A DNA stretch of 61,150 nucleotides, the filler included, from Basidioascus undulatus (lineage: Eukaryota): assembly GCA_000826855.1 (NCBI GenBank). It is 9 parts of 9 records of this genome, joined end to end, with 100 filler letters (N's around TTAATTAATTAA, not from the genome) between each part and the next. Parts side by side here need not be neighbours in the genome. Positions count along the whole stretch, not along the records: positions 1 to 24,812 come from JTLS01000230.1; 8 more parts are not named here. One strand, 5' to 3'. The position numbers were made by a program, and so were the translations under genes. This document shows positions 17,314 to 22,900 of this stretch, one piece after another. Numbering within the stretch: position 1 is the stretch's first letter; every line of letters starts with the position of its first letter. The notes beneath the pieces were generated by a model. It did not search any database and was not told the DNA's origin. It was given only the letters and a program-made list of their open reading frames with translations.

Positions 17314-19904
17314 ATGATGGCCGACACGACAACCGTGCCCGCGCAGGGCGTCAAGACCTCCAAGTGCGTTTCGTTAGGAAGGGAGAAGGGGCATGGGGAA
17401 GGGGTGGTTGACGCTGGGTTGGGCGTCGCAGTGTCCCTGGGTTCGCGAACCCCCCGCTGCCGATGGATGGGAATGGGTACTTCTCCAACGTGTGTACTTA
17501 CTCCTCTTGCAGAAAAAGCGCATCGTACTGAGGAAGCATGGATGGGGAATCGCAGTACCAACTTGCTGCCCTCGTCCTCGGGATCCCGTACCTCGTGAAG
17601 CGCTCTATCCCGTACTTCTCCACGGGGCTCAAGACGTACATCTTCCTGGTCCTCGTTCTCGGCTTGCCGATCACGATCGCGTACTGGACGCTCATGTCCA
17701 CGTACGGCCCGCGCAAGAACGAGAAGGTCATCCCCCCCGGGCGGGATGTCTCGCACTACCTCGACATCAAGGACGTGGAACTCAAGCGCGAGCACGAGGG
17801 AAAGAACAAGATCAACATGCAGGTGTTCCATGATGCGTTCTTTGATGGGAAGATCGACGTTAAGGGTCCGTAGCGCGCTGGGTTTGGGAGACGCAGAGGT
17901 GGTAGTCAGAGGAGGCTGACTGTGCGGTGGGGGATGGACGGACAGGCGACATGCTCGACGTCCTGGAGTACCGCCACGACTGGGCCAAGTTCAACTTTAC
18001 GCCGGAGCTTTTCAAGTATGTCTTGACGCAAATGCTCCCCGAGGTCATCATGCACTCCAAGAGCCAGGACGAGGAGCAGGTCCGGGACCACTACGACCGT
18101 GCGCCTTCCGGTCCTTCCTTTGCTGGAGGAAGCACGGGCTGACATTTGGGAGGGCATCTGCTTGCCTCATTGTGTAGGGGGTGACGACTTTTACGAGTGG
18201 TGCGTTTTCAGCTCGCAGCCCTCGCAACCGAATGCGCGCTGATAGCAGTGTCTTCGCACAGGTTCCTCGGCCCTCGCATGATCTACACGTCCGGCGTCGT
18301 GCGCGACATCACGCGCGAGGAGACGCTCGAGGAGCTGCAGGACAACAAGCTCGCGCTCGTGTGCGAGAAGCTCGACCTCAAGCCCGGTGAGAAGCTGCTC
18401 GACATTGGGTGCGTTCTCCTTCTCCCATCTTCGCAACTGTGATCTAACGCATCAGAATCTGACATTGGGGGCTTGCGGGATGGGACAGCTGCGGCTGGGG
18501 CACCCTCGCGGCGTACGCGGCCAAGAACTTCGGCGTCGACGCGACGGGCATCACCCTCGGCAAGAACCAGACCAAGTTTGGCAACCAGCGCATCAAGGAC
18601 AACGGCGTCTCGCCTGAGCAGGCTCGCATTCTCTGTGCGTACACCCGTTTTCCTTCTTCCTGCCCCTACACCGGAGATGCCTGACGCTGAGATCTGAATT
18701 GATGCAGGCATGGACTACCGCGAGATCCCCCGCACCCCCGGCACGTACAACAAGATCGTTTCGCTCGAGATGGCTGAGGTGTGTTCACTGCACAGCCGTA
18801 CCCTCTCTTCCATTCGACTGCCGGGTACTGACCGAGATGGGCATCGCAGCACGTCGGCATCCGCCGCTACCAGTCCTTCCTCCGCCAGGTGTACGACCTC
18901 CTTGACGACGACGGCATCTTCGTCCTTCAGGTCGCCGGTATCCGCCCGCACTGGCAGTACGAGGACCTGATCTGGGGTCTCTTCGTGCGTCTCGTCTTCT
19001 TGCTCTTTCCCTCGACCCCTCGCACGCTGCGGTGGCTGATTCGGACATGCTACGCAGATGAACAAATACGTACGGACTTAGCTCATGCGTTGCAAGAACG
19101 CAAGAGCCGATGTGCTGATACGATTCGCTCGCAGGTCTTCCCTGGTGCCGACGCTTCCTGCGCGCTCAATTGGGTCATTGGCCAGGTGCGCGCAGCCCCC
19201 AATGTGACTCCGCCCACTGTGCATGCTGAGTACAATATTGCCTTCCAGGTTGAGGCTGCCGGCTTCGAAGTCAAGGAGATCGATGTTCTCGGTGCATTCG
19301 CCTACCCAGGTCGCTCCGGGCCAGCGTGCTGATGTTTCGCGCTTTTTGGCAGGCGTTCACTACTCGGCGACCATCTTCCGGTGGTACAAGAACTGGCTCT
19401 CCAACGTGCGTTGTAGGCCGCTCTTTGGGAGGTGGGCACAGCATTGACATGCGACGTGCGGGGCTTTTACAGAAGGAGAAGGTCATCGCCAAGTACGGCG
19501 AGCGATGGTACCGGATCTGGGAGTACTTGTAAGCCCTGTTTGCCCTGTTCGACCGCCCGATGTCTCAACTGAACTAATACATTTCTCTCCCTATAGCGTG
19601 CGTCAAAACCATACACTATGATGACAGTTGTATGGAATGTTCGAGCTGACACTGCGGCCCATGTATAGCTCGCGTCCTCGACCATCACCTCCCGCCAGGG
19701 CGGCGCGTCCGTCTTCCAGATCACGCTCCACAAGAACATCAACGGTTTCCACCGCATCAACGGCGTGCCCTCCCACCCAGGCATCGTCACCAAGAAGCCT
19801 GTGTCCGAGTACTCGTGCGTCAACTGCAACTCAGCTTCACCTCTCCCACTCCATCTCCTGCTTGAGTATCTAACGGGTATTGCCTCTACAGCTCGATCCT
19901 CTAG
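17314..19904 (+). CDS. Sphingolipid C9-methyltransferase (cyclopropane-fatty-acyl synthase family), many exons including a 12-nt exon and a 1-nt exon at 19597
   Basis: Spliced NPPLPMDGNGYFSN...HSKSQDEEQVRDHYDRGDDFYEWFLGPRMIYTSG...LLDIGCGWGTL...IVSLEMAEHVGIRRY...WGLFMNKYVFPGADAS...RIWEYFLASSTITSRQG...HRINGVPSH. Confidence 0.93.
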
Positions 19905-22900
19905 ACGGAGGGGCACCTTTGAAGATACGACTCGGGCAGACGGGAAAGGGGAACGACGGAGTGGCTTTCGGGCTTGGGCTGGGAAACAATTTGCATGGAG
20001 CGGAGGCGGCCAGGACGCTGTCGGCTGTGGCTTGGGATGTTTCGTCGCATTCGCTTTCAATTCGATTCGCATAGACTCTTTTCGACTTGTTGCGCTGCTT
20101 CAGGCGCTCGAGAAAAGCGGGGATTGATATGATACTGCGTCGACGGGTAATTCCCAGGCATTCATTCAGGTATCATCAGTGTGTCTTCCGCACAGTCGCT
20201 TCAAGTCGGTTGCTCTCGCGAGACTGCGCGGCACGAACGATAGCGCGTCGGCGCACAAGCGTCAGGTCTACCGTTCGCAATCCCCCCTTTTGCATCGTTG
20301 TGAGCGAGTATAATAGGACTTTATCTGCTCTCAAAGGGTGAGAACCGGGGTCCCGCTGGCACAGTACTGCGACTGGTGTAGGCGAGCTCGATCTTGACTT
20401 TTGTTGCCGACGCACAAGTCGGAGGGGCAAACTCGAACCCTCGCTCGAGGAGTCGCGCTATCCGACGCCTTCGAATAGCAGCCGTACCTTTACCTCGACT
20501 CGGAACCTGAAGAACAGTCCGGAACGGAGAACTCGGCCCCGTTGCTGGCCTTCCACCTGTGTTCCCGTCCCTCCGATTCTCTTGATCAGCCCAGTCCAGT
20601 GCTCAGGGTCCTTTGGGGTCCCCCGGAAGGGCAGAGAAGCTGTATTGAAGTCGGGCCGACAGGACCCGGGACAGGGAGTGAGCAGTTGATGTTATTCGCA
20701 AGCGCTGCTATGCTTTCCTAAGTAGGTAAATGTCAGCGATTACTGCAGGCAGAAGAAACGGGCGCTGTTCTTCCTGCGTGTTCGGCGCATCGAAACGTTA
20801 ATCGTTAGAATCTTGTTATTGTTTCTTTATCCCGTCAATATACAGTAAAGTGATTGTTTGCCCGCACGGAACGTCGCTTGTACCCTCGTCCCCTGTCCTG
20901 CCTGATGAACTCACTTGTAAACACGACTGGACCGACCCCTTGTCGCATACGGCAATCCCCTCATTCCCTGAACCACCTGGAAAATATTCACATGGAAAAT
21001 CTGATGCTACCAGCTCGGGCCCTCACTGAGAGAAGAAGATCGCGATGTCGTTTCAGCAACGCTGCGCCTTCCGATATCCCAAGCCTGTCCATCTACCGTC
21101 GACCCTTTACGCTGGTCATCATCCGACTCTTATTCCTTCTGATCATTCTTCGGACGAGATACCTCCATGTCTATAGGCAGGGTTTTCAGTTCAGTACAGT
21201 CACGAACTGTGGAATGTGACAGGGGGCGCGTGGCGAGGTAAGTCCATGTGGTTGAGATTTATCGGACCATGTAAAACGGTTGTTTTACTTATTTTTAACT
21301 TTGCCTAACCCATGTTGATCCGTTCTAGCATCCAGAGGTGGAATTCCCTTACGGAAGGCAGAATTTGGCATGCAGTGTGCAGCTTCCACCTCGCCAGAAC
21401 ATTGCCATGACTTTGAAGTGCAGTCGATGAGTATAATGATACTCATATAGGCCTTTGTTAGCGGCCGAATTTTAATGTTGTGGCCTTTCGTGCAGTCTCG
21501 AAAGCGCCGAGGATGCATAGTGCTGTTGCAAGCACGCAGCGTATGTCGGGGTGCTGGTCGTCGTATGCAGGGCTGGGGGCTAGAGGGACTGATGTCCTGG
21601 CATGTCGGCACGGGCTTGCATGATACCGGATATACCCATTTTTTGGCCTGAATTCTAAAAAAAAATACATGTGTCATTGCCCACTTTCGAGAGTGATCGA
21701 AGGTCTGCGCTTCCGCTATCGCTTGAGTCTTCCATACGCCCTAAACACCAAGTGCGTTGGGCGTGTTTGCCAAATAATTCTAGTTAACATGTGAAAATAG
21801 AGCTCTTGCAGCGGCTTTTTAACCTGACTCACATGCTTGAATGTCTCCCTCCGAGTTTCCGGTATTGCTGGGGTGGAAACACCGACCCAAACCATGACCT
21901 ACCTGCTGTAGATGCAGCATGAATACAGATATAAAGATGTGATACCCGGGCTAGAAGAAGATGCGAAAAAAATGCAGATGCGACCTTCGCGTGCTAATCA
22001 GAAAGGCCAGTAGTAGACTGTCGTGTTGTTGCAGAAGTCTTCACTTCCAACAGGCCACTCCACTGCCCCAAAGTGCTCGGAAATGGGAACTCACGGAGAC
22101 TTGGGCATGAAATATTGAATGAGAACACGTTGCAGCGTAACTGCTGATGGTAGAGCTGTGCATTGCCCATGCTTCAAAAAATTCACAGCCCGCCTGCCCC
22201 GGGGCCGAATTAGCCAATGCGACCGCACTATAATCATGGTTTTCCTCTAATAATTCTGAAATATGTTCTAGCCCTCGATCATGATGCTGATAAAGGGTTT
22301 GTATATCAGCTGGTTACCTAGGATTGCAGCAGCTGCAATTTTGGGGACCAATCCATCCCACTCTTCCTTTGCCAAAGGATGCAGACATTTTGCGTTCTCT
22401 GTACTTTAAAATCTCAACAATCTCCTAAATATATATTTGGTCCCATGCAATGGCCGCATGAAGTCCGACGGCAAATCAATGCATCGTACCGCGTGCTCCC
22501 ATTCCTCATTCCCATTTGACAGTCTCACAGCCCATTAGTACGGGAACCAAGAATATCTAGGGGAAATTTGGTGAGCTAAACTGCCAACTATTGCCCAAAC
22601 ATGAGGGCCGGCAAGCGTACCCGGGTTGGTAGATTGTCTCCTGCTGTGCCGGAGACATCACGGGGCTGGATGACGAGCCGTCCTTCAGAAAATAGCAGAG
22701 GTTTGAATCTGTACCAGACTCAACCAAACAAAACTACTCAGGGCCCGAGCAGTCTGATATACGCTAGCACAGAGAAACGCACAATGCTCTTAACTGCTCA
22801 CCTAAATCGAACAGCGTCACGCCCATTTCATTCTCCACCCTCCCTTGATGATTTCCCCCTTCGGCATTTTATGAGCGTGGACTCCATTACTCTTATGTTT

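Follow-up and report, generated by a model that had tools for sequence, protein, structure and literature searches.

Evidence for a single-nucleotide exon in a predicted sphingolipid C9-methyltransferase gene of Basidioascus undulatus

We found that C19597, one base lying between two short introns of a gene in the basidiomycete Basidioascus undulatus, is very probably a genuine single-nucleotide exon, and it is included in the only transcript form that was assembled. The initial annotation had proposed this exon from the genomic letters, reading TT plus C as Phe. That proposal is borne out by one extra C in a spliced contig, by two sets of DNA contigs that agree with the window and have no such base at the exon edges, and by the one canonical decomposition that yields the observed cDNA, and we therefore take the exon to be real.

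Results

A one-base exon between two complete introns

The gene lies in a stretch of 61,150 nt from assembly GCA_000826855.1, filler included, and the whole of this stretch is referred to here as the window. The coding part of the gene and the features around the one-base exon are listed below, with positions counted along the window.

17314..19904, plus strand: coding part of the predicted sphingolipid C9-methyltransferase gene; 17 exons, 16 introns, 488 aa; stop codon TAG at 19902-19904
19473..19528, plus strand: exon 14; 56 nt, ending ..GAG TAC TT, with TT as codon positions 1 and 2 of Phe436; contig joints 19405 to 19473 and 19528 to 19669
19529..19596, plus strand: intron 14; 68 nt, phase 2, donor GTAAGC, acceptor TATAG, GC 0.49; absent from the spliced contig
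19574..19578, plus strand: putative branch site of intron 14, CTAAT, with A19577 lying 19 nt from the 3' end
19597..19597, plus strand: single-nucleotide exon C; third base of codon TTC (Phe436), present as the letter C in the spliced contig
19598..19668, plus strand: intron 15; 71 nt, phase 0, donor GTGCGT, acceptor TATAG (..GTATAG), GC 0.46; absent from the spliced contig
19646..19650, plus strand: putative branch site of intron 15, CTGAC, with A19649 lying 19 nt from the 3' end
19669..19814, plus strand: exon 16; 146 nt, starting CTC GCG TCC (Leu-Ala-Ser); conserved C-terminal part of the CMAS-type domain

The sequence reads ..GAGTACTT and then GTAAGC from 19529; CCCTATAG ends at 19596, the C stands at 19597, and CTCGCGTCC comes after 19668. 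These letters, their coordinates, the intron lengths of 68 and 71 nt and the canonical ends are all as the initial annotation had described them. It had also given each intron a branch point of its own, and a putative one, identified as a motif match, is indeed present in each, its A being 19 nt from the 3' end in both cases. Removal of 19529-19668 as a single intron shifts the frame of the C-terminus, as had been predicted, and retention of C19597 restores it.

Introns 14 and 15 are each viable alone, with their own donor, branch-like motif and acceptor, and with lengths of 68 and 71 nt as compared with 61-80 nt in the other 14 introns (61-80 nt over all 16). The intron 15 donor, GTGCGT, is the modal donor of the gene, used by 8 of the 16 introns, and the GTAAGC of intron 14 is found in no other intron of the gene. 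A TAG acceptor occurs in introns 14 and 15 and in one other, CAG in 13 of the 16, and the GC contents of introns 14 and 15 (0.49 and 0.46) are the two lowest among the gene's introns. The two introns share a match of 7 nt at most, and no further copy of either was found within the window; on these grounds, a shared origin or an introner-like repeat was rejected as an explanation of the pair, within the scope of the window. We also looked for RNA structure that could bring the splice sites together and found none in the fold of 19509-19688 (z = +0.72; 151 of 200 shuffles fold at least as well).

The motif AG-N-GT occurs 205 times on the plus strand of the window, giving about 0.47 expected per 140 nt, and once within the 140 nt of 19529-19668, where 1 of the 38 C's, C19597, has AG before it and GT after it. 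The bare motif is thus within chance expectation, and its combination with the sole canonical route to the cDNA exceeds it.

A spliced contig carries the C and DNA contigs match the window

The locus was present in three sequencing runs, X1 (2014), X2 (2025) and X3, none of them recorded as RNA, which we compared over 17400-20100. The Logan DNA contigs of X1 and X2, runs that belong to two studies, show no difference from the window across these 2701 bases (0 other letters, 0 gaps), each of the two being flagged as a possible source of the window, such that at most one is independent. As neither differs from the window, a missing base in the assembly is unlikely.

X3 comes from the same sample as X2, and its kind stands on record as a guessed 'DNA?'. 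Its contig (1548 nt, depth 175.6) differs from the gene's exons by 0 letters and leaves out 13 stretches, each bounded by GT and AG; in two cases, letters stand between the sides of the joint. At the joint from 19528 to 19669, 140 bases are skipped and one letter, C, stands between the sides; the piece of the contig that follows, covering exon 16 (19669-19814), has 0 other letters. At the joint from 18984 to 19135, 150 bases are skipped and the letters between are those of a 12-nt microexon (19058-19069) that encodes Met-Asn-Lys-Tyr, which means that another microexon, independent of the first, is recovered by this read-out. Of the gene's words, X3 contains 41%, with every intron missing, and its depth equals the exon share only, both in the bin 17855-17945 (11/91 x 175.6 = 21.2) and in the bin 19584-19674 (6/91 x 175.6 = 11.6). 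Because these bin depths are accounted for by exon bases, X3 contains no intron-bearing copy of the gene and behaves as a transcript library, and from the absent introns we infer that it is one (cDNA). The transcript evidence thus consists of one assembled contig from one run and one sample. Contigs lose rare variants, and for this reason a minor isoform without the C may exist; among the contigs compared over 17400-20100, we found no partly spliced forms.

The same contig informs the rest of the gene model. GT..AG skips in it confirm 15 of the 16 introns, and for intron 1 (17364-17431) the whole of the support is a loose contig end at 17432, where the letters match the exon ending at 17363. 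The 5' end of the model was corrected from transcript evidence, with ATG 17314 as the predicted start; ATG 17538 was rejected as a start, as it sits within an intron (17490-17555) that is spliced out in the X3 contig. The gene has a further small exon of 22 nt (18178-18199) in addition to the 12-nt microexon.

Only one canonical decomposition yields the observed cDNA

To place the retained base, we exhaustively enumerated the intron combinations that yield the observed cDNA, finding 0 single-intron and 45 two-intron solutions. GT/GC..AG borders on both introns were present in 1 of these 45, namely 19529-19596 with 19598-19668. A single intron with either border shifted by one base would keep G19529 or G19668, never a C. 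We also rejected single-intron alternatives that use donors at 19523 or 19533 or an acceptor at 19698, which give the wrong frame or an in-frame TAA at 19530-19532. What the initial annotation had named as evidence against its reading, that is, a cDNA lacking the C, another splice site that restores the frame or a missing base in a flanking exon, was not seen in any of these respects.

The cDNA alone would look the same if the genome had an extra C at an exon edge (..TACTTC|GT.. or ..AG|CCTCGCG) that the assembly had lost, with 19529-19668 forming one 140-nt intron, and the 0.47 AG-N-GT motifs expected per 140 nt by chance could then account for the flanks of C19597. Against such an assembly indel, however, the X1 (2014) and X2 (2025) DNA contigs match the window across 17400-20100 with 0 gaps, and the exon edges without the extra C (..TACTTGTAAGC.. 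and ..TATAGCTCGCG..) are not long homopolymers. An intron of 140 nt would be nearly twice as long as the longest of the other 14 (61-80 nt), and chance would have to supply the modal GTGCGT donor and, in each half, a branch-like motif at 19 nt from an AG. We consider an indel of this kind highly improbable. The C could also have come from elsewhere, through another C of the apparent intron joined by non-canonical sites, through slippage of the polymerase or the assembler, or through editing of a leftover G. There are 38 C's in the 140 nt, and 44 of the 45 two-intron decompositions use positions other than 19597, but all 44 need non-GT/GC or non-AG borders, whereas the other skips of the contig are all GT..AG. 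An insertion made by the assembler is unlikely in a contig at a depth of 175.6, and G-to-C RNA editing is not known to occur. These origins for the C, too, retain very little probability.

A different kind of explanation would leave the letter C in place and question where the contig came from: its source could be an intron-less processed copy, or an allele almost identical to the locus, elsewhere in the genome, with the locus in the window being a frameshifted pseudogene that has a 140-nt intron. The 'DNA?' on record for X3 is compatible with this, and a second copy elsewhere in the genome is possible, the sequence examined being that of the window. But no letter of the contig differs from the exons, and an X3 with 41% of the gene's words and no introns is what a transcript library would give, unlike genomic DNA. 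If there were a processed copy, it would, moreover, itself record a spliced mRNA with the C, and the gene in the window is otherwise intact over 488 codons. We regard this explanation as very unlikely and proceed with C19597 as a single-nucleotide exon.

The C completes a conserved Phe codon

To assess the gene product, we ran a Pfam scan on the exons separately and found CMAS (PF02353) above the 27-bit cut-off in two of them, at 18263-18406 (33.4 bits, E 3.7e-08) and at 18490-18633 (38 bits, E 1.6e-09), with a weak match of 17.1 bits (cut-off 27) in a third, 18850-18984. A protein search with the exon 17556-17864 gave 45 matches among 350 candidates, the best at 70% identity; many of the 45 are named sphingolipid C9-methyltransferase by NCBI or UniRef, and those with a taxon are all from Basidiomycota. 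The spliced model is 63-75% identical to named C9-methyltransferases over about 450-480 residues (P0021, 75.4%; P0004, 72.8%), the full-length values for named basidiomycete enzymes being 70-75%, and neither of the two protein searches returned a homologue above about 75% full-length identity. Identity is similar for Polyporales, Tulasnella and Mixia, indicating that the protein database contains no close relative. The names given by these sources suggest that the product is a sphingolipid C9-methyltransferase, with a predicted activity of C9-methylation of the sphingoid base of glucosylceramide.

Among 51 homologues longer than 300 aa, 49 have the motif [RK]-x-W-x-x-F-L-[AG], and the remaining two (P0043 and P0044) end ahead of this region. 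Since Phe is found in 49 of 51, TT plus C reproduces an invariant residue; TT plus A or TT plus G would give Leu at the junction. The Tulasnella proteins, too, have W-E-Y-F-L-A-S-S, unbroken. The earlier description of the junction with the C as family-like is therefore sound, Phe occupying the position in 49/51 full-length homologues.

The flanking introns are absent from sampled relatives

To look for the intron pair in relatives, we scanned metagenomes by alignment of the C-terminal exon (19669-19814), keeping 80 of 157 confirmed loci; the closest relatives available are at about 75% protein identity. W-x-x-F-L-[AG] was found in one unbroken frame in 80/80 (one of them as W-V-F-F-A-Y), each with Phe at this position, and hence 0/80 have an intron at the position of intron 14 or intron 15. 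The initial annotation had suggested a check of orthologous genes for a conserved AG-N-GT; with no intron at the site in any of the 80 relatives' loci, no such conservation was found. Seventy of the 80 are genomic, having at least one intron elsewhere in the gene, and the other 10, in which no tested region has an intron, may be cDNA.

We mapped intron positions in the relatives by an anchor-based approach. Two groups of loci have a phase-0 intron near the site: in 4 (L007-L010), whose proteins resemble Rhodotorula-type sequences, it follows W-Y-R and is 14 nt upstream, and in 16 it separates S-R from Q-G and is 27 nt downstream. Intron 3 has an identical position and phase in 43/51 loci, intron 8 is common to 58/72 and intron 11 to 38/78, a distribution that marks these other introns of the gene as old. 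By contrast, in no sampled relative did we find an intron at the position of intron 10, 12, 13, 14 or 15. Near introns 9 and 10, relatives have one intron, which lies 10 nt upstream of intron 9 in 57 loci and at intron 9 in L015; two introns were found there in 0/77 loci (in this exon 9-10 region, we set aside 3 loci with 32 extra bases and 3 with only GC..AG solutions), so the 12-nt microexon is also private among the sampled loci.

It is possible, though we hold it only tentatively and think it rather unlikely, that the one-base exon is young and lineage-specific, a new intron having inserted at a distance of one base from another, within a lineage in which the 3' half of the gene has gained several private introns. 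Because the relatives sampled are not close, gain in this lineage and loss elsewhere give the same pattern. If a young origin is true, the pair would be a naturally occurring example of splice sites being chosen with practically no exon sequence around them, given that the retained base is C and not the consensus G and that the introns are the most AT-rich of the gene, and an obligatory order of removal would probably be needed.

Discussion

The pattern at 19529-19668 is most simply described as two complete, ordinary introns, probably of the U2 type (68 and 71 nt), that lie one base apart and are both removed, the single C being ligated to exon 14 (..TACTT) and to exon 16 (CTCGCG..). The C completes codon TTC, which encodes the conserved Phe of a W-x-[FY]-F-L-A motif close to the C-terminal end of the enzyme. 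Intron definition, with recognition of the intron as a unit, probably applies to each of the two, as would be expected from what is established for short introns in fungi. The donor of intron 15, with its U1 footprint, would overlap the acceptor of intron 14, making simultaneous occupancy by two spliceosomes presumably impossible, and because of this overlap the introns are probably removed one after the other. Either order would leave workable sites, TTC|GTGCGT if intron 14 goes first and TATAG|CCTC if intron 15 does. Sequential removal by intron definition, as the initial annotation had suggested, is thus plausible.

In recursive splicing at a zero-length exon, or AG|GT ratchet point, no base is retained and a long intron is removed stepwise; here, one base is retained and the introns are 68 and 71 nt long. 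In a stwintron, two U2-type introns in contact are removed by consecutive splicing reactions, the internal intron being located within a splice signal of the external intron, and no base between them is retained (PMC5639578, PMC5587772, PMC12403724). Both introns described here are, unlike those of a stwintron, complete, and one base is kept between them. The intron 14/15 pair works like consecutive splicing and is not a stwintron.

The closest parallels are the published single-nucleotide exons. The 1-nt exon of Arabidopsis APC11 was proven with substitution and deletion constructs (Guo & Liu 2015, PMC4674806). As reported for APC11, the extra cDNA base is non-contiguous with the exons in verified DNA, lies inside an apparent intron with AG/GT flanks and is required for the reading frame; annotation had missed the APC11 base (PMC4674806). 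The two differ in that the APC11 base is an A in an apparent intron of 422 nt, and here a C lies between introns of 68 and 71 nt, and in that the APC11 base was shown by mutation, whereas C19597 rests on a contig and the enumeration of splice borders (PMC4674806). A plant survey describes conserved 1-nt exons in APC11 and VPS55, the former conserved in most land plants, as against 0/80 relatives' loci here (PMC8831610).

Among fungi, a 1-nt exon (G) is reported in the Fusarium P450 gene CYP621A, in about 20 species and with SRA read support (Nelson & Syed 2026, PMC12940212). The report calls this the first case in a fungal gene, and its authors hold that G is favoured because of its fit to both splice-site consensuses (PMC12940212). 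The CYP621A exon resembles ours in that it is fungal, in an apparent intron of about twice the usual length (139 nt there, 140 here), with a base that completes a codon in a conserved motif and with public transcript data as support (PMC12940212). It differs in that its base is G (AG-G-GT), in an ascomycete, and is conserved in aligned orthologues (PMC12940212); here, the base is C, the host is a basidiomycete, and conservation was not found in 80 loci. A long-read annotation of Coprinopsis cinerea (2025) gives a tally of '1 nt, 13 exons in 13 genes' and puts the share of gene models that contain an internal microexon (at most 15 nt) at about 9% (PMC12230235). That annotation had thus already listed 1-nt exons before the 'first fungal' claim of PMC12940212. 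C. cinerea (Agaricomycetes) is likewise a basidiomycete, and the gene described here also has small exons, of 12 and 22 nt; the Coprinopsis figure, unlike our single-gene case, is a genome-wide tally (PMC12230235). Among the titles and abstracts listed for single-nucleotide exons, none dealt with the C9-methyltransferase family.

Set beside APC11 and CYP621A, the locus shows one retained base that is not adjacent to the exon ends, AG/GT flanks and viable flanking introns. The exon-edge DNA is verified as well, with X1 and X2 only partly independent of the window, and a conserved AG-N-GT in orthologues, which is not strictly part of the definition, was found in 0/80 loci. The initial annotation had held 1-nt exons to be very rare, with APC11 as a reported case. 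This view is out of date, plant VPS55, Fusarium CYP621A and 13 Coprinopsis cinerea genes having also been published. The type of exon is already known from plants and fungi, and what we describe is a further case of a rare kind and no new mechanism.

A 1-nt exon is beyond what standard gene finders and spliced aligners can model, and automatic annotation will therefore misread this C-terminus, giving a lipid-modifying enzyme of this genome a frameshifted or truncated end. The exon adds a transcript-supported basidiomycete example with C to a short list that comprises APC11, VPS55, CYP621A and the 13 in Coprinopsis, and C as the exon base weakens the idea that G is needed. With its short, well-defined introns, the locus offers a compact substrate for studying how two spliceosomes handle splice sites separated by a single base.

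Short exons of the methyltransferase gene

Beyond its single-nucleotide exon, the sphingolipid C9-methyltransferase gene contains other short exons, which are listed here with one intron, numbered 6, that bears on the comparison with relatives.

17314-17363 and 17432-17489, + strand: two further short 5' exons, within 17314-17555
18178-18199, + strand: 22-nt exon, between introns 18099-18177 and 18200-18261
18409-18488: intron 6, phase 2, at the L-D-I-G/C-G-W-G junction inside a SAM-binding-type motif
19058-19069, + strand: 12-nt microexon coding Met-Asn-Lys-Tyr, between introns 18985-19057 and 19070-19134

For the 22-nt exon, the spliced contig (the 1548-nt contig that we read as transcript) supplies two joints that confirm it, and the 12 letters of the microexon are present in the same contig, between both sides of a 150-base skip. 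At the 5' end, we rejected the ATG at 17538, which resembles a start codon but sits within intron 17490-17555. The string ATGGATGGG is present twice in this region: the exonic copy lies at 17463 and the intronic one at 17538.

Intron positions among relatives

Comparing the gene with metagenome loci from relatives, we found 95-111 extra bases at the region of the 22-nt exon in 22 of 57 loci, which would be compatible with a pair of introns there as well; at the region of the 12-nt microexon, two introns were found in none of 77 loci. In the 3' half of the gene, the span of introns 12-15 (19186-19668, + strand) holds several intron positions that were seen in none of the 80 sampled relatives. 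In some relatives an intron lies close by, at a distance of 9-14 nt: by introns 12 and 14 in loci L007-L010, and by intron 13 in L048 and L057-L059. The differences may reflect intron gain, loss or sliding.

One relative's locus, L065, codes W-V-F-F-A-Y at about 1218-1284; it lacks the Leu of F-L-A, a motif that is invariant elsewhere, and its motif distance is 3 nt shorter. Its neighbouring region carries a TGA in the expected frame, and the locus may therefore be a decaying copy or reflect a sequencing error.

Finally, judged by eye from the locus sequence, the single metagenome locus L072 appears to have the same phase-2 intron as intron 6 of the window gene, an intron that is otherwise rare.
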